64,000 bases of DNA, taken from the IMG/VR virus record IMGVR_UViG_3300045988_067909; one strand, 5' to 3'. Under the pieces are notes generated by a model. That model saw only the letters and a program-made list of their open reading frames with translations. It did not search any database and was not told the DNA's origin. Shown here in pieces: positions 35,111 through 59,681 of the stretch. Position 1 is the first letter of the stretch. The number at the start of each line of letters is the position of its first letter. The DNA is from a virus. The translations under genes were made by a program, and so were the position numbers.

Positions 35111-35153
35111 TAACTATTATGAAATAATTTAGATTTGTAAATTTTAAAATCTA

Positions 35154-35210
35154 TGAAACAAATCTATAATTATATACTATATCTGTGTATAGGGAAATTC
35201 CCTATACACG
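35154..35210 (+). promoter_or_regulatory. Conserved 27-nt element plus hairpin, copy 1 (candidate phage promoter or leader)
   Basis: TGAAACAAATCTATAATTATATACTAT followed by the hairpin gtgtataggg-aaatt-ccctatacac. A near-identical motif and a hairpin occur at 59621..59681. Confidence 0.35.
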
Positions 35211-35261
35211 GTATGGTACTCATACTTTTATTCTATCTATTTGATTATAGGAGGAAACAAT

Positions 35262-45365: not shown

Positions 45366-45373
45366 GATTCAAA

Positions 45374-45410
45374 TACAGGTACTGGAAGTTCCAGTACCTG
45401 TTTATTTTTT
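45374..45410 (+). terminator. Strong intrinsic terminator
   Basis: acaggtactgg-aagtt-ccagtacctgt followed by ttattttttc. Confidence 0.65.
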
Positions 45411-45858
45411 CTCATCATACTCTCATTTAACCTAACACTACTGTAATAGCAGTGACAGCTGTCTATTACACCCTTATCTGGATTTAACGGTAGCCAGATT
45501 TGGTTGTTACTTCTTATATACCGTATATTATACAGGTGCCAGTATCTTAACAAACGGCCATGTTAGATACTCGTTGCAGTGTTTGCAGGTTTATTATTGT
45601 TTTCCTTGTTGCAATAATAGACAAAGTTTCCTCTTAATGGATTAGGGTAGTCCATAACCTACCCTAATACCATTACTCCTATTTACGTGATACCGTGCGG
45701 TATAATAAACTCCTTACTTAAACTAAAATAGCTTACCCAGTATAGACAGTGTCTATACTGGGTATTTGCCGTTTCGTAAAACTTAGTTTTTTCAGTTATA
45801 TACTATAATGGTAATATCATGGTTATATTATTTAGTTTACATATAGGAGGAATATATC

Positions 45859-49521: not shown

Positions 49522-49585
49522 CATATAAGTAGCTAAGATTTTTTCATTTGACTCCTAAATAACTAAATGTACTTACCTAGTAGAG

Positions 49586-49630
49586 CCCTAGTACGGATAT
49601 AATTTGTACTAGGGTTTTATTTGCCTTTTG
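49586..49630 (+). terminator. Intrinsic terminator
   Basis: ccctagtac-N11-gtactaggg followed by ttttatttgcctttt. Confidence 0.55.
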
Positions 49631-49855
49631 TAAAAAATAAAATCATATAAACAATATAGTGATAGGTAGCACCTCGTATAATCTATAACTTATAAATCTA
49701 CCTATCAAGAGGCTTATATAGTTGATACTTTCAGTATAGTAGGCTATCTCATAACCATTCAATCCCTACTATACTTCCCTTCTAATCAACTATAAGGGTC
49801 AAGCGCTTCTTCAAGAGTTATCGAATTAACTCACTTTAAACACAACAAGAATACT

Positions 49856-49890
49856 CCATATAGGCATTGCCTGTATGGGGTTTTCTTGTG
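49856..49890 (+). terminator. Intrinsic terminator inside an ORF-free region. Its hairpin sequence is nearly identical to the terminator at 53686.
   Basis: ccatatagg-cattg-cctgtatgg followed by ggttttcttgtg. Compare cccatataggcaatgcctatatggg at 53686..53710. Confidence 0.45.
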
Positions 49891-49929
49891 TTACCTATAC
49901 CACACTTATATAAAAAAGGAGGATAATTT

Positions 49930-50461: not shown

Positions 50462-50593
50462 ATGGCAGATAATAAATATGGCGTAATCAATGAAGTTGGT
50501 GACTTAGGATTAGGTTTCCAAGAGCTTAATGATAATGATCAAAAAGTGCTTCAAGAACAATTGAAGCAAGAACAAGACAAAGATAAAAAATAG
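50462..50593 (+). CDS. Possible small acidic protein (43 aa), not in the supplied track
   Basis: GGAGGAAAAAATTATG. Translates to MADNKYGVINEVGDLGLGFQELNDNDQKVLQEQLKQEQDKDKK. Its own terminator follows at 50603..50649. Confidence 0.3.
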   Translation: MADNKYGVINEVGDLGLGFQELNDNDQKVLQEQLKQEQDKDKK

Positions 50594-52015: not shown

Positions 52016-52942
52016 ATGAAGGGCATTTATTTTAATAACCTGAAGAATCCTGCATTAGATCCTATTGTAGATACGATGGAATTGAATATGCTATTAGATG
52101 ATCCTTCGGAAGCAGAAAAAGCAGAGATTAGAGATAACTTTGTTAACGAGGTTATGTCTAAAGGATATAATGAAGATGAACTTAAACTATTCATCTTTAA
52201 TAACTTCCATGAGTTCGTTAAATACTCTTATGAAGTTCCTGAAGTAGCTAAGCTTTGGGAAGAACGACCTATGGTTCCTAAGCTAATTAAACAACTGCTT
52301 ACTAAATATACTCCAGGGTTTAGTTTTAATAAGCTAGACCGCATCTATATAAATGGAGTAATCTATAACCATAACGTAGTACATCAGAATGATGAAGTAC
52401 CTGGTATGGTTACAGAAATACTTAATGATTTAGGTATGACAATCAATAAAGACGTATGTGAAATCTTAGACAGCATCTATTATCTTCCTAGACAGTTCTA
52501 TACTATGGCTGTAATAGCAAGATTCTCAGATGTACGTGAAGAAATCAATATTAGACGTATCTTGTTCTTATTGATGATTACCTATGAATATAACACTACC
52601 ACTGTAGATGATATCCGCATCATTCTTGAAGCGTTATTCTATGGTGAAATGACTCCATTGTTTATCATTAATATGCTAGATACTCATAGAAGTGAACAAT
52701 GGTACAACTATAGATATAGAGCGGCTGAAGAAGATACTACATTTGCTCTATATAGAATAGTAAATGCTATGCCTAAACACATTATCAAAGATACTTTGCT
52801 AAAATATAGTGAAGTCTGTGTAGCTAGACAACTCAAACTAGATGATGTGAAATGGACATTGGTAAACTTACCATTAGATGACTATAGAGAATTAGCTATT
52901 ATAGCTGATACTCTAAAGAACGATGGTTATTATTTACCATAA
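52016..52942 (+). CDS. Hypothetical protein (308 aa) immediately downstream of the tubulin gene
   Basis: ATACGAGGTGA initiation context. No motifs. Confidence 0.35.
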   Translation: MKGIYFNNLKNPALDPIVDTMELNMLLDDPSEAEKAEIRDNFVNEVMSKGYNEDELKLFIFNNFHEFVKYSYEVPEVAKLWEERPMVPKLIKQLLTKYTPGFSFNKLDRIYINGVIYNHNVVHQNDEVPGMVTEILNDLGMTINKDVCEILDSIYYLPRQFYTMAVIARFSDVREEINIRRILFLLMITYEYNTTTVDDIRIILEALFYGEMTPLFIINMLDTHRSEQWYNYRYRAAEEDTTFALYRIVNAMPKHIIKDTLLKYSEVCVARQLKLDDVKWTLVNLPLDDYRELAIIADTLKNDGYYLP

Positions 52943-52944
52943 CA

Positions 52945-52995
52945 ACACAAAAAATAATACATGGGTAGAGAGGATGCCCTACCCATGTATATCTT
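52945..52995. terminator. Bidirectional hairpin at the start of the duplicated cassette
   Basis: catgggtag-N10-ctacccatg. The minus-strand side is followed by a T-run (tattattttttgtg). Confidence 0.45.
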
Positions 52996-52998
52996 TAT

Positions 52999-53181
52999 CT
53001 ATACACCATATCTATGATATAGTCGCATGCGCCATAGTGGCACCATATGCTCTATTGGTGTATCTTTATCTGGTAAATGTTCACCAGACTCAGTACCAAC
53101 AGGTATAGATTCAGATGCTAGTCTTCTAGCTTCGAGCTCAGGAATCTGAGCGCAAAGCGAGAGGAGAAACTCTCTGCTCAT
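52999..53181 (-). CDS. Small protein (60 aa), copy 1 of a tandemly duplicated gene
   Basis: SD AAGGAGGTGAA. MSREFLLSLCAQIPELEARRLASESIPVGTESGEHLPDKDTPIEHMVPLWRMRLYHRYGV. It is 49/60 identical to copy 2, with mostly conservative substitutions. Confidence 0.45.
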   Translation of the reverse strand: MSREFLLSLCAQIPELEARRLASESIPVGTESGEHLPDKDTPIEHMVPLWRMRLYHRYGV

Positions 53182-53307
53182 AGGGGATTCACCTCCTTAT
53201 GACAAGTAGACATAAGTCTACAAGTGTATGGGTAAATTTAGATACGGCTATTGGTACTAGCTGTATCTACCATACACATTTATAGTATACAATCGTAAAA
53301 CAGTTTA

Positions 53308-53353
53308 CATATAAAAAATAATACATGGGTAAGTGGGGATACACCTACCCATG
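53308..53353 (-). terminator. Minus-strand terminator of small-ORF copy 2 (unit boundary)
   Basis: catgggta-N14-tacccatg. On the minus strand it is followed by tattattttttat. Confidence 0.45.
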
Positions 53354-53364
53354 ATTATCTTTAT

Positions 53365-53547
53365 CTATACCCCATATTTATGGTATAGTCGCATGCGCCA
53401 TAGTGGCACCATGTGAACTATTGGGGTATCTTTGTCTGGCATCCGTTCACCAGATACAGTACCTACTGGTATGGTTTCGGATGCCAGTCTTCTCGCTTCG
53501 AGCTCAGGGTTCTGAGCACAAAGAGAAAGAAGGACATCTCTTGTCAT
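53365..53547 (-). CDS. Small protein (60 aa), copy 2
   Basis: SD AAGGAGGTGAA. MTRDVLLSLCAQNPELEARRLASETIPVGTVSGERMPDKDTPIVHMVPLWRMRLYHKYGV. Confidence 0.45.
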   Translation of the reverse strand: MTRDVLLSLCAQNPELEARRLASETIPVGTVSGERMPDKDTPIVHMVPLWRMRLYHKYGV

Positions 53548-53685
53548 AGGGATTCACCTCCTTATGACTTATGGGTTATAGTCCCATAAGTGTATGGTTA
53601 TATTTAGATACAGCTACTACTAATAGCTGTATCTACCATACACGTTTATAGTATACAATCGTAAAACAGTTTACATACAGAAACT

Positions 53686-53722
53686 CCCATATAGGCAATG
53701 CCTATATGGGACTTCTTTTTAA
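53686..53722 (+). terminator. Intrinsic terminator (a repeat of the hairpin at 49856)
   Basis: cccatataggca-atg-cctatatggg followed by acttcttttt. Confidence 0.5.
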
Positions 53723-53725
53723 TTC

Positions 53726-53756
53726 TTACATACTAGGAAACAAGAAAGTATATAAT
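53726..53756 (+). promoter_or_regulatory. Sigma-A/sigma-70-like promoter candidate upstream of the recombinase gene
   Basis: TTACAT-N17-TATATA(AT) lies 30 nt before the SD TAAGGAGGA. It contains GAAACAAGAAAGTATATAATA, which resembles the 27-nt motif. Confidence 0.3.
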
Positions 53757-53785
53757 ACTTTGAAATTATGTAAGGAGGAAGCACT

Positions 53786-55012
53786 ATGAGTGAAGATTTA
53801 ATTTCGATAGTATCTGATAAGATGGGTACATCTAGTAGTACAAGCATTTATGATGTATTATACCCAACAGGGTTCTTTAATGTAGACTATTTGAATGGTT
53901 ATAAGATTAATGGTTATCATAAAGACGGTACTAAATTCTCTTATGATGCATTTGGTATTGTAGATGGTTCTTTTAACTTAGTTGTCGGACGTACTGGTTC
54001 TGGTAAAACAACAGCAGCTATCCAATGGGGTGCTAATATCATTCGTCGTTTTGAAAAGGCAAGAATGTTTATCGCATCTATCGAGGGTGGTATTACTATT
54101 AACCGTCTTGAAGCATTAACTGGTTGGTTTGGGGATGATTTATTTAAACGTGTAAGTATTCGTAATAGTGGTCTTAATGTAGAGAGCATCTATAAAGAAA
54201 TCTTATCTATCTATGATGCTAAGATGGCTAATAAAGAAGAATACTTATATGACACAGGTCATGTAGATTCTCGTGGATTGCCTATCATTAAGATGGTACC
54301 AACTGTATATGTGATTGACTCTGTAGCTAATATGGTTCCAGAACGTGTAGCTAACCGTGGTGAAATGGGTGGTCAAATGGATGCAACTGCTATTGCTAAA
54401 GCTAATACACAGTTCATCAAATTGACTATGCAATTACTTAAGACTGCTAATATTATTGTATTGGCAATCAACCACATCAATAAACGTGTAGAGACTGGTT
54501 TCATGCCAACTAAGAATGATATCCCATATCTTAAACAAGATGAAACATTACCTGGTGGTAAAGCTATTAACTATGATGCTAATAATATCTTCAAATTGGA
54601 TGATAAGAAGATTAAAGAAGAATCTTTTGGTTTCAATGGTAAAGAAATCGTAGTTCAAATGATTAAGTCTCGTACTAATAAAGCCAATATGACTACACCA
54701 TTATTGCTTAACTTTGATATTGGGTTTGACCCATACTTCTCTTTATTATTACTTCTTAAAGATACTGGTCGTGTTAAAGCCAAAGGGGCTTATATGCAAC
54801 TAGATGAGCATGCTGATATGAAGTTTACCAATAAGAAGTTTACTGAAATCCTATTTGATAATAAAGACTTCCAAAAAGTATTCTTTGAAGCGGCTAAAGA
54901 AGAATGTCGTAAGTTGTTAACTCCAACTAAGACTTTAACTGAGTCTGTAGATAATACATTGTCTAATGATGTAATGGCATTATTTAGAGCAATGGACCAA
55001 GTAGAAGAGTAA
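53786..55012 (+). CDS. RecA/UvsX-family recombinase (divergent)
   Basis: Walker A VGRTGSGKTT; the later blocks VIDSVANMVPE...GEMGGQ and VLAINHINKRV parallel the RecA core. Length 408 aa. Confidence 0.5.
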   Translation: MSEDLISIVSDKMGTSSSTSIYDVLYPTGFFNVDYLNGYKINGYHKDGTKFSYDAFGIVDGSFNLVVGRTGSGKTTAAIQWGANIIRRFEKARMFIASIEGGITINRLEALTGWFGDDLFKRVSIRNSGLNVESIYKEILSIYDAKMANKEEYLYDTGHVDSRGLPIIKMVPTVYVIDSVANMVPERVANRGEMGGQMDATAIAKANTQFIKLTMQLLKTANIIVLAINHINKRVETGFMPTKNDIPYLKQDETLPGGKAINYDANNIFKLDDKKIKEESFGFNGKEIVVQMIKSRTNKANMTTPLLLNFDIGFDPYFSLLLLLKDTGRVKAKGAYMQLDEHADMKFTNKKFTEILFDNKDFQKVFFEAAKEECRKLLTPTKTLTESVDNTLSNDVMALFRAMDQVEE

Positions 55013-55099: not shown

Positions 55100-57328
55100 T
55101 TGGCAACTAGCGTAAATATTGTAGACGAAATTAAGAAATATGAAAGGAGATTGAAATTCCCAGAAGAGGCATTAGGTAAAGAATTGGCCGAACCTATTCC
55201 AACAGCAGTATCTGGGTCACGTAAATTATTGTATTCAACACAGGCCGATCAAGTTATGTCTTTGAACACACCTGAAGTGCCGTTCTTACAGACAGGCTAT
55301 GAGAATGAGTTTGGACATAAGTCCACATCATTCAAACAATATCATGGTGATGATTTAGTTATACTAGATAAAGTCGATAAGTTTAACTGGATCCCTAATC
55401 ACCATTATTTTCTACTCACATACAATGCTAATAAGAATATCATTGATGCTGTAGAACGATGCTCATACTTACATATTACAGAAAGCTATGGGTATGACCA
55501 AAATACTAAGTACTTAGACTCCCTAGGTATTGGTAGTAAAATCCGTACAGGTGACATCTATCTCAAATCCAAAGGGTTTGATGAGTATAATAACCGTATG
55601 GATGGTGTAAATCTATTAGTTACTTATGCCGCTATCTCAGATACTACAGAAGATGCTATTGTATTATCTGAAAGCTGTGCTAAGAGATTAAGTTCTCCAT
55701 TGTATCATAAAGTCCAAATCATGGTCAATGAGAATGATATCATGCTCAATCTATATGGTAATGAAACCATTTATAAAGTTATGCCTGATATCGGAGAAGA
55801 AGTATCCAATAGTCTTCTATTGGCTACAAGACGTGAGAATAAACAAGAATCCTTGTTCTCTCAAGTATATTCCAGACTTATGGATATTAATATGAATGAC
55901 AATAAGATTACTGCTACAGGTACTGTAGTTGATGTCAATGTCATTACTAATAATCCAGATATGATGGAATCATCCAACTATACTACACAGCTTAGAACGT
56001 ATTGGAAAGAATCTATTCGATTCTCCCAAGAGCTTGTAGATAAAGTGGATATGTACAAAGATCGTTATCCTAATGCTAAGATTGGATACGAACTACAAGT
56101 ACTTTATTCTAGAGCAAAGAGCTTATTAGATGGAGAGAAGTTCTCTCTTGATGGTAAGAAAGCTTTCTCTAATATCTTCCTTGAAGTTGTGGTACGTGAA
56201 AACAATGAACTACATATCGGGGATAAGATTACTAACCGTTATGGTGGTAAAGGTGTTATTAGCCGTATACTTCCAGACGAAGAAATGTTTGAGACTATTG
56301 ATGGACGTAGAGTAGAAATGATCTATAACCAAGGTACTTCTACTAACCGTCTTAATCCAGCTCAGATATTTGAAACAGAAATAAATGCAGCATCTGCCAA
56401 ACTTCTAAGATACTTACCTATGGAAACACCATATGAGGTAAATCAATCATTAGAACGTATTGCTACATTTATGAGTATCTTCACTCTAATGCAAGCTAAT
56501 GCATTCAGGGAATATGTCTATGCCTTGAATGATGATAGCAAGTTAGATTTACTTAAGTCTATGAAGAACGATGGATGTATAATTCTATCAGTATCTCCAA
56601 TACAAGAAAACATTGACCTAGATAAACTAGTAGCTATGTATGAGTTATTCCCTGAATGTGAGATTGATTATGCTTATTGTCAATTACTTGATAGTAATGG
56701 TAATCCTCGTAAGGTAAGAACTCAACGTCCTTTACTAGTGGGTCATCAATACATTGTAAGACTTAAACAGTATGCAGAAGATAAGTTCTCTGTAACTTCA
56801 TTGTCTGCTACAAACTCTAGAAATGAAAATAGTCGTAATAAGAACCCAGGTGAGGGTGGACATAGATTTCCTAATACTCCAGTACGTTGGGGTGTAATGG
56901 AAACATCTGCTATGCAACACATTGGTTCTTGGTTCAATGCTATTATGCTTCTAGTATATAGTACGTCTCCACATGCAAGACGTAAAGCTAAGAATCTATT
57001 AACAGATTCACCATTCAATATCGACGTTAAAGTTGATAGTGAATCTAAATCTAGATCTGTAGAAGTACTTAATGTATATCTACGGACTATAGGCTTAAGG
57101 ATTAGATTTGATAAATATAAGAAAGTGATTAAGAGTATATTTGCTCTTCCATCTTCTATCCCACATATGTTTATCGAAGTTCCTGATGCTGATCGTAAAC
57201 CTACAATTGAAATGGTGGATGATAAGAAAGGGTTTAAGATTCCACAAATCATCTTCAAAGGTGATGACCCTAAACCAAATATGTTTATCAACCCACCTAA
57301 AGAGGAAGAAGAACCTCAGAAGGAGTAA
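55100..57328 (+). CDS. Multisubunit RNA polymerase beta subunit, C-terminal half (split rpoB; apparent TTG start)
   Basis: NFED-like EDAIVLSE and GDKITNRYGGKGVISRILP (E. coli GDKMAGRHGNKGVISKI). QYIVRLKQYAEDKFSVTS (compare YmLKLnHLVdDKmHARS). GGHRF...RWGVMETSAM (compare GGQRFGEMEVWAL). Confidence 0.7.
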   Translation: MATSVNIVDEIKKYERRLKFPEEALGKELAEPIPTAVSGSRKLLYSTQADQVMSLNTPEVPFLQTGYENEFGHKSTSFKQYHGDDLVILDKVDKFNWIPNHHYFLLTYNANKNIIDAVERCSYLHITESYGYDQNTKYLDSLGIGSKIRTGDIYLKSKGFDEYNNRMDGVNLLVTYAAISDTTEDAIVLSESCAKRLSSPLYHKVQIMVNENDIMLNLYGNETIYKVMPDIGEEVSNSLLLATRRENKQESLFSQVYSRLMDINMNDNKITATGTVVDVNVITNNPDMMESSNYTTQLRTYWKESIRFSQELVDKVDMYKDRYPNAKIGYELQVLYSRAKSLLDGEKFSLDGKKAFSNIFLEVVVRENNELHIGDKITNRYGGKGVISRILPDEEMFETIDGRRVEMIYNQGTSTNRLNPAQIFETEINAASAKLLRYLPMETPYEVNQSLERIATFMSIFTLMQANAFREYVYALNDDSKLDLLKSMKNDGCIILSVSPIQENIDLDKLVAMYELFPECEIDYAYCQLLDSNGNPRKVRTQRPLLVGHQYIVRLKQYAEDKFSVTSLSATNSRNENSRNKNPGEGGHRFPNTPVRWGVMETSAMQHIGSWFNAIMLLVYSTSPHARRKAKNLLTDSPFNIDVKVDSESKSRSVEVLNVYLRTIGLRIRFDKYKKVIKSIFALPSSIPHMFIEVPDADRKPTIEMVDDKKGFKIPQIIFKGDDPKPNMFINPPKEEEEPQKE

Positions 57329-59614: not shown

Positions 59615-59620
59615 CCCTAG

Positions 59621-59681
59621 TGAAACAAATCTATAAGTATATATTATAAATGAGATAGTGGTTTGCTATCTCGTTTCTTTT
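59621..59681 (+). promoter_or_regulatory. Conserved 27-nt element plus hairpin and T-run, copy 2
   Basis: TGAAACAAATCTATAAGTATATATTAT, then gagatag-tggtttg-ctatctc followed by gtttctttt. The hairpin ctagggttaaa-N8-tttaaccctag (59590..59620) spans the ligase stop codon and precedes it. Confidence 0.35.

Follow-up and report, generated by a model that had tools for sequence, protein, structure and literature searches.

In T4-type phages, compact elements known as PeSLs, which join a sigma-70-like early promoter to a stem-loop terminator and stand in ~50 copies upstream of ORFans (open reading frames, ORFs, lacking relatives), have been held to explain the insertions, deletions and replacements that distinguish close relatives (Arbiol et al. 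2010, PMC2839356; Comeau et al. 2014, PMC4122927). In the jumbo phage AR9, early promoters, which are read by the virion RNA polymerase (RNAP), have the consensus AAATATATATTAT-(6N)-G(+1), a single deviation from which can abolish activity, and late promoters have the consensus AACA-(6N)-T(A/G) (PMC5312081); in MarsHill-like phages, TATATTAT lies upstream of 29 genes. Here we describe two adjacent minus-strand units, each with a 60-amino acid (aa) ORF behind a structured leader, in a 64,000-nucleotide stretch of viral DNA (IMG/VR record IMGVR_UViG_3300045988_067909; the whole stretch is referred to below as the window). The units probably belong, as neighbours, to a dispersed family of portable cassettes for early genes, carried by what, judged from its gene content, is an uncultured AR9/PBS1-like jumbo phage.

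The two units lie head to tail at 52949-53313 and 53313-53683 and are 83% identical over ~366-371 nt in a BLAST alignment; a repeat finder paired 52978-53185 with 53344-53551 (84% identical) and 53222-53332 with 53588-53698 (85% identical), at a spacing of 366 nt. Read on the minus strand, each unit comprises a ~40-nt conserved block, a long interrupted palindrome, a short hairpin, the Shine-Dalgarno (SD) sequence AAGGAGGTGA, the 60-aa ORF and a G+C-rich hairpin followed by a T-run. This anatomy bears out the first-pass annotation of the window, made from its letters alone, which had described two direct repeats, each with a terminator hairpin, a leader and a 60-aa ORF, and had picked out the SD sequence, the palindrome TAGATACAGCTA-N7-TAGCTGTATCTA, a second hairpin and the conserved 40-nt block. 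The extent of the palindrome was understated there: an outer 8-bp stem, GTGTATGG/CCATACAC, makes it a 54-nt hairpin. The proposal that each unit is a self-contained gene module is likewise supported. The parts, ordered as the minus strand is read, are the following.

52949..53719, minus strand: the array of two cassettes as a whole (leading hairpin, then A2 and A1), delimited by second-site copies in relatives, which are homologous from 52949 to ~53719
53685..53711, no strand assigned: array-leading perfect hairpin TCCCATATAGGCA(A)TGCCTATATGGGA, with a T-run on the plus strand only at this site
53641..53683, minus strand: cassette A2 putative promoter block, with TATACTAT at 53655-53648, N6 and the predicted +1 G at 53641, matching TATAYTAT-N6-G
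53590..53643, minus strand: cassette A2 hairpin 1, with an 8-bp outer stem, a 7-nt one-sided bulge, a 12-bp inner stem and a 7-nt loop; supported by covariation and a fold z score of −6.1
53569..53589, minus strand: cassette A2 hairpin 2 (UUAUGGG / CCCAUAA), its stem sequence unlike that of cassette A1, its structure alike
53554..53563, minus strand: cassette A2 Shine-Dalgarno sequence AAGGAGGTGA, read directly
53365..53547, minus strand: ORF A2, 60 aa (MTRDVLLSLCAQNPELE...), supported by coding statistics
53324..53353, minus strand: cassette A2 intrinsic-terminator-like hairpin and T-run, immediately upstream of the A1 promoter block
53275..53317, minus strand: cassette A1 putative promoter block, with TATACTAT at 53289-53282, N6 and the predicted +1 G at 53275
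53224..53277, minus strand: cassette A1 hairpin 1, with a single mismatch, A·C in the mRNA and G·U when read on the plus strand
53206..53221, minus strand: cassette A1 hairpin 2 (GUAGAC-UUAU-GUCUAC), supported by covariation and folding
53189..53198, minus strand: cassette A1 Shine-Dalgarno sequence AAGGAGGTGA, read directly
52999..53181, minus strand: ORF A1, 60 aa (MSREFLLSLCAQIPELE...), supported by coding statistics and by relatives
52957..52990, minus strand: cassette A1 intrinsic-terminator-like hairpin and T-run, facing the 3' end of a convergent 308-aa gene

The repeated array extends to ~53719 and takes in the extra hairpin at 53685-53711; the block 52949..53719 is found again at other genome sites in relatives, where hairpins of the same type also stand before the first cassettes. 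Four terminator-like sites were found over 1.5 kb, against 0.7 expected, and folding against shuffled sequences gave z scores of −4.2 and −6.1 for the leaders and of −5.5 and −6.4 for the terminators. The leading hairpin has a counterpart elsewhere in the window: 49856-49878 and 53687-53709 belong to one hairpin family, CCATATAGGCA(A/T)TGCCT(A/G)TATGG, variants of which stand ahead of cassette arrays in relatives, and which appears to be a reused terminator module.

The relatives reveal what is repeated. At one related locus (L004), the cassette that comes after an A cassette repeats the leader (83% identity) and terminator of the latter around an ORF for an unrelated 69-aa protein. All leaders in the retrieved relative loci could be assigned to four cargo groups: A, with ORFs of 60-62 aa; A', divergent, of 60 aa; B, of 66-70 aa; and C, of 58 aa, which can be aligned with B. 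These make up at least three unrelated families (A, A' and B/C), and each group is under purifying selection (dN/dS 0.09-0.25, with an excess of third-position changes); no homologues of these families were found outside the clade. Homology of family A with B/C was ruled out by profile comparison (hhalign probability 0.4%). In one contig of 259.7 kb, no fewer than 11 cassettes are spread over five sites (15, 44.5, 81, 135 and 223 kb), and eight other genomes of ~243-270 kb carry at least 6-11 each, in arrays of up to four, the counts being lower bounds as some scans used strict patterns. There are 5-7 cassette sites per genome, and the arrays mostly occupy junctions of converging gene blocks. 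The site between the UvsX-like recombinase gene and the 308-aa gene is itself polymorphic: relatives with flanks 90-97% identical, or with an identical A1 protein, carry here A1 alone, A2-A1, A1-B or B*-B-A (B* being a truncated B), and the A1 and A2 lineages each occur separately. The conserved and repeated entity is the regulatory flank of ~190 nt, and the ORFs are its interchangeable cargo. The copy-number check in related phages that the first-pass annotation had proposed thus returned at least 6-11 cassettes per genome, and the private tandem duplication that it had envisaged did not hold up, given the same flanks around unrelated ORFs at 5-7 sites per genome. The duplication itself is ordinary, the pair being two neighbours of a multi-copy family.

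Both ORFs are genuine protein-coding genes under purifying selection. The A1 and A2 proteins are identical at 50 of 60 residues (initially counted as 49), and the 32 nucleotide differences between their genes are distributed 3/6/23 over the three codon positions (dS 0.72, dN 0.09, dN/dS 0.13). A protein database search retrieved 48 clusters at 75-98% identity, nearly all exactly 60 aa long and located on ~260-kb contigs; among 14-31 distinct nucleotide versions, variation was concentrated at third positions over the whole length of the ORF. Selection acts on both ORFs at the protein level, as initially surmised, and a reading of the locus as purely a source of small RNA is refuted by the codon-position pattern. 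A dS of 0.72 indicates that A1 and A2 are old paralogues, and a recent duplication in situ was rejected on this ground. As exceptions, a few relatives carry truncated ORF copies (43, 30, 17 and 14 aa) behind intact leaders, for example at L016:2125-2350, which suggests that these cassettes are decaying copies; in the 43-aa case, hairpin 1 also has two mismatches.

Protein A had been said to match no canonical phage function, and indeed none of Pfam, PHROGs, PADLOC and the PDB sequences yielded a family for it, and a profile search against 1.8 billion representatives brought up nothing but the family itself and a single spurious hit to a repeat protein. Searches of GenBank phages with tblastn and blastn recovered neither A nor B nor the leader. 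By these searches, family A is a clade-restricted ORFan. The protein is charged and hydrophilic, has no hydrophobic segment and is predicted to be helical, disordered and again helical along its length: AlphaFold2, run with 39 sequences, placed helices at residues 3-12 and 14-24, an unconfident middle and a C-terminal helix at 49-57, with a mean pLDDT of 61, too low for fold comparison. From their position and presumed expression class, host-takeover or counter-defence accessories are the most likely candidate roles of the A proteins, and the regulator or anti-defence role suggested in the first-pass annotation is a guess.

To characterize the leaders, 77 distinct copies, chosen by the outer-stem anchor GTGTATGG/CCATACAC, were aligned. 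Ten compensatory pairs with changes on both sides were found, five in the inner stem of hairpin 1 and five in hairpin 2; 95.7% of cells were paired, the observed covariation was reached by none of 500 shuffles, and sliding the register reduced pairing to 16-45%. The stem of hairpin 2 alternates among GUAGAC/GUCUAC, GUAGGA/UCCUAC, AUGGG/CCCAU and GGUG/CACC, and differs between the two units of the window. Hairpin 1 has near-invariant arms around a 7-nt loop for which 88 variants occur in 142 cassettes, a contrast that points to selection on the arms rather than to homogenization by gene conversion. By these alignments, the palindromes behave as hairpins rather than as operators. Two further features of the leader were observed. 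A weak third hairpin, at 53542-53567 and 53176-53200 on the minus strand, pairs the start and first codon with bases 5' of the SD sequence (UCAUA...UAUGA), and in relatives the bases upstream of the SD sequence (GUCAU or GCCGA) seem to follow the codons with which the cargo begins (AUGAC/AUGAG or AUGGC).

These data bear on a simple alternative, namely, that a single regulator or anti-defence gene was duplicated in tandem and that the palindromes are autoregulatory operators bound by the encoded protein. Two adjacent paralogues do share the palindromes, and the N-terminal half of the protein is predicted to be helical. However, the same palindromes precede the unrelated B and C ORFs at several sites in each genome, the compensatory changes in the arms preserve pairing and not the half-site sequence, the mismatches are specific to one strand (see below) instead of symmetric between half-sites, the copies are old and separate in relatives, and the protein A searches detected no helix-turn-helix or other DNA-binding family. 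We consider this explanation very unlikely, and an operator of double-stranded half-sites was rejected on the grounds of the compensatory and strand-asymmetric changes.

The conserved 40-nt block, the core of which reads TTGTATACTAT-AAAYGT-G, is best read, by analogy with AR9, as an early promoter for the virion RNAP. A sigma-70 scan gave no minus-strand site in either conserved block, and a promoter of that type was rejected for these blocks. The motif TATAYTAT-N6-G has 13 matches in the window, 8 of which fall within the 5.3% of non-coding DNA and are each aimed at the next gene (P = 6 × 10−8). The late word AACA-N6-T(A/G) is ~3-fold depleted in the window (44 occurrences versus 132 ± 13 in shuffles), and its copies lie nearly all on the local coding strand, the intergenic ones directly upstream of genes, including uvsX at 53739. 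Such depletion and placement are the behaviour expected of a functional promoter word and suggest that late transcription in the phage relies on an AR9-like promoter, spurious copies of which are avoided. No late motif is present inside the cassettes on either strand. From the early-type motif and the absence of a late one, we infer that the units are expressed early only, the predicted transcript starts, G53275 and G53641, being located at the foot of hairpin 1. The positions of motifs located elsewhere in the window are given below.

19659, 31921, 35173, 45524, 55016 and 59640, plus strand: early-type motifs (TATAYTAT-N6-G) ahead of other genes
13104(−), 19452(−), 28920(−), 35157(+), 37117(+), 41418(+), 53739(+) and 59624(+): examples of late-type motifs from the window scan

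At no fewer than three of these early-type motifs (35173, 55016 and 59640), a hairpin begins at or a few bases from the predicted +1, for example, GTGTATAGGGAA-A-TTCCCTATACAC at 35187-35211 and GAGATAG-N7-CTATCTC at ~59654. The segments 35153-35190 and 59620-59660 share GAAACAAATCTATAA(T/G)TATATA(C/T)TAT, in which a late-type motif is directly followed by an early-type one, a combination that in AR9 is the arrangement of continuously expressed genes.

Hairpin 1 shows a pronounced strand asymmetry. Among 119 distinct sequences, the mismatches in the inner stem, as seen on the mRNA strand, were 37 A·C versus 7 G·U, or 35 versus 3 when the loop-closing pair was left out (binomial P = 7 × 10−8); the A1 hairpin of the window, A·C on the minus strand and G·U on the plus strand, is an example. 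The terminator hairpins of the same cassettes displayed the opposite pattern on the mRNA strand, with 26 G·U versus 4 A·C (Fisher P = 1.5 × 10−9 for the contrast), and synonymous-site transitions were balanced once composition was considered. Both controls led us to reject mutation bias as the source of the A·C excess. Because mismatches that are A·C on the mRNA strand remain G·U or G·T on the complementary one, hairpin 1 seems to be selected on the complementary strand, either as template DNA or as antisense RNA. Other early-promoter hairpins offer too few variants for comparison, and the two variants seen, at 59640, have G·U on the sense strand.

Taken as a portable early-gene cassette, each unit would be an independent minus-strand transcription unit. 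The upstream stem-loop would halt incoming transcription, and the AT-rich promoter TTGTATACTAT-N6-G would then be read by the injected virion RNAP, giving a ~95-nt leader in which the 20-bp interrupted hairpin comes first and the small hairpin next, directly before the strong SD sequence, with the 60-aa ORF and an intrinsic terminator closing the unit. The ~190 nt of regulatory sequence would supply both expression signals and homology, and recombination on the shared flanks may duplicate, delete and swap the small ORFs and move them between intergenic junctions, as proposed for the PeSLs of T4. Several observations weigh against this account, probable as we consider it. The assignments of promoter, start site and early timing rest on the analogy with AR9 and MarsHill, and the cassette motif, which retains the core and the N6-G spacing of the AR9 consensus, departs from it by C for T as the fifth base of the core and by TTG where the consensus has an A-rich upstream part; taken by itself, TATAYTAT-N6-G is no more than mildly enriched in the window (13 versus 7.4 expected). 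No recombination intermediates or breakpoints came to light, and a linkage analysis of leader segments, aimed at locating a recombination hot spot, met too many alleles to be informative. Finally, the mismatches in hairpin 1 weaken the hairpin in the mRNA and spare that on the complementary strand, which a simple role as a stabilizer of the mRNA 5' end does not predict.

This asymmetry is the unexplained feature of the locus and the foundation of a different reading, in which the invariant 12-bp inverted repeat that opens every cassette, with its free 7-nt loop, would form a sequence-specific and strand-specific hairpin in single-stranded template DNA, either a new promoter element for the sigma-less multisubunit virion RNAP of AR9-like jumbo phages or an integron-like recombination site in a lytic phage. 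We regard this reading as unlikely, and its two forms differ in what supports them.

A promoter element of this kind has a precedent in phage N4, in which a single-subunit virion RNAP recognizes hairpins with a 5-7 bp stem and a 3-nt loop located upstream of the start site. As in N4, early genes, a self-injected RNAP and a template-strand DNA hairpin tied to the promoter would be combined, the template-strand role here being a candidate one, and such a role, by which the hairpin would help the enzyme to recognize early promoters or to open them, would add to the cassette model and not supplant it. In its favour, the A·C mismatches correspond to G·T on the template, against the opposite pattern of the terminators and the balanced spectrum at synonymous sites; the hairpin begins at the predicted +1 beside the promoter motif, with conserved arms and a free loop; topoisomerase II subunits are encoded in the window; and the non-virion RNAP of AR9-type phages is indicated in PMC9209446 to read its promoter on the template strand. 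Unlike the N4 elements, however, the hairpin is of 20 bp, lies downstream of the predicted start so that it would be transcribed, and would serve a multisubunit enzyme; it should also impede elongation, and the hairpin at the early-type promoter 59640 has the sense-strand G·U noted above, albeit in two variants only. On balance, a template-strand aid to the virion RNAP is distinctly improbable.

In the second form, the hairpin, folded as a single strand, would be the point at which site-specific rather than homologous recombination moves the cassettes, in the manner of integron attC sites or of HUH/IS200-like elements. As with attC sites, there are arrays of small, mostly unknown ORFs, each with an imperfect, variable-loop hairpin that has two stems and a one-sided bulge; the strand bias of its wobble pairs, which has other possible explanations, would fit selection on the ORF-complementary strand, like that on the attC bottom strand; in addition, cargo replacement is ORF-precise, and identical loops are joined to different downstream segments. 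The differences are these: the hairpin lacks the R''/R' boxes RYYYAAC ... GTTRRRY, its outer stem being GTGTATGG/CCATACAC in 77/77 anchor-selected copies, it lies in the 5' leader, and each cassette comes with a promoter-like block and a terminator of its own, in the setting of a lytic jumbo phage. No integrase (intI-type or other), HUH nuclease or reverse transcriptase (RT) was found among the 22 window ORFs scanned, nor any RT in the relative loci. Moreover, flanks of 130-190 nt at 80-95% identity suffice for homologous exchange through the UvsX system of the phage, and the linkage analysis gave no fixed crossover point. Site-specific movement of the cassettes is, in our estimate, highly improbable.

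If the complementary strand acted as RNA, the functional product could be an RNA pair, cis-antisense or similar to a type I toxin-antitoxin, with the ORF secondary. The apparent selection of hairpin 1 on the antisense strand is compatible with the antisense half of the small RNA idea raised in the first-pass annotation, the plus-strand-only terminator at 53685-53711 could end an antisense transcript, and late antisense transcripts do occur in AR9 (PMC5312081). Against an RNA pair, the plus strand of 52945-53720 has neither an early- nor a late-type promoter motif from which an antisense RNA could be made, and the differing cargo ORFs leave no possibility of a conserved antisense promoter within them. 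In addition, the ORFs bear strong coding signatures, protein A is unlike type I toxins, and no Rfam match reached the gathering threshold on either strand. We give an RNA pair hardly any credence, and a type I toxin-antitoxin was rejected because protein A is charged and without a hydrophobic segment and the plus strand has no promoter motif.

A hairpin made as cDNA by a retron or another RT was also considered, as MarsHill and similar relatives encode an RT. The MarsHill RT was matched neither in the window nor in 2.3 Mb of relative loci nor in a scan of viral contigs from close relatives, and this candidate was rejected, although a divergent RT elsewhere in the genome is possible. In MarsHill itself (L288:28849-30072), a stretch of 1.2 kb devoid of annotated CDSs immediately precedes the gene for the retron-like RT gp206 and could contain the template RNA of that enzyme.

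The setting of the array supports the assignment of the phage. The window encodes a PhuZ-like tubulin, a UvsX-like recombinase, topoisomerase II subunits, a DnaB-like helicase, a ligase and an RNAP beta-like subunit (ORF 55100-57328; phrog_3295, E = 3 × 10−91; PF00562), and the presence of the beta-like, PhuZ-like and UvsX-like genes fits an AR9-like phage; the full set of RNAP subunits falls beyond the 64-kb window, and the assessment made here concerns the beta-like gene alone. The sole cultured relatives at the DNA level are the Staphylococcus jumbo phages MarsHill, Machias, S6 and PALS_2, which match in the recombinase gene only, at 66-83% identity. The identical A1 protein is indexed in 220 blocks of a public assembly collection, including 86 in which the contigs measure 0.2-1 Mb, which implies that the phage is common. 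Matches in a species-genome collection were confined to phage contigs (CALISH01; L319-L323) binned into a metagenome-assembled genome of an uncultured Solobacterium sp.; the binning is a weak hint at the host and agrees with the strong Gram-positive-type SD sequence.

Other non-coding parts of the window attract attention as well. Two unusually long gaps, 45366-45858 (493 nt) and 49522-49929 (408 nt), contain several hairpins each, and neither holds an ORF of ≥90 aa, an Rfam match at the gathering threshold or a tRNA. In the gap preceding the tubulin gene, a 43-aa ORF, MADNKYGVINEVGDLGLGFQELNDNDQKVLQEQLKQEQDKDKK, with a GGAGG SD sequence and a terminator-like hairpin after it, occupies 50462-50593 on the plus strand; it was missed by the ORF list, the minimum length of which was 90 aa. 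A tRNA search of the window was negative, and Rfam searches of both strands (52500-54000 in E-value mode, the whole window in gathering mode) gave nothing credible, the best score being 30.9 bits for the trpB motif against a cut-off of 59.

The reshuffling of small early accessory genes has been documented mainly in T4-like phages, and the same logic would here operate in an unrelated, widespread jumbo phage with its own RNAPs. The cassettes single out a small group of candidate early proteins (families A, A', B and C) for screens of host takeover and counter-defence, and the cassette unit, ready-made for expression, may be used to engineer such phages. The hairpin with the strand bias, for its part, provides a testable handle on the recognition of early promoters by the virion RNAPs of jumbo phages, the mechanism of which was left open by the AR9 study.

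Compared with described systems, the putative cassette promoters are closest to the early promoters of AR9 and MarsHill, with which they share the core TATA(T/C)TAT, a G 6 nt on and a location upstream of small genes, in a phage that likewise encodes RNAP beta-like subunits and in which the late motif AACA-N6-T(A/G) behaves alike. They differ in the C at the fifth core base, in the TTG that replaces the upstream A/T run and in the 54-nt hairpin at the predicted +1, which is undescribed in AR9, where an uncharacterized 5'-UTR motif is mentioned (PMC5312081). Integron attC sites, N4 hairpin promoters, type I toxin-antitoxins and retrons each fail in at least one defining feature. With T4-type PeSLs, the likeness extends to the whole arrangement: a composite of stem-loop terminator, early promoter and SD sequence, promoter and terminator being predicted here, stands directly upstream of small ORFans; each module has its own promoter and terminator; many copies per genome occupy plastic intergenic zones; and the flanked ORF is inserted, deleted or replaced between close relatives. 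In contrast to PeSLs, the cassette promoter matches the AR9-type early motif of the virion RNAP and not a sigma-70 promoter (−35/−10), the unit is longer, with a ~95-nt structured leader and two covarying hairpins added, the strand-biased one without a PeSL counterpart, there are ~6-11 copies per genome versus ~50, and the phage lineage is one of jumbo phages with multisubunit RNAPs. Sharing the architecture, the multiple copies and the polymorphism of PeSLs but not their sigma-70 promoter, the cassettes are, in our reading, functionally analogous to PeSLs, a variation on this type of element rather than a member of it.

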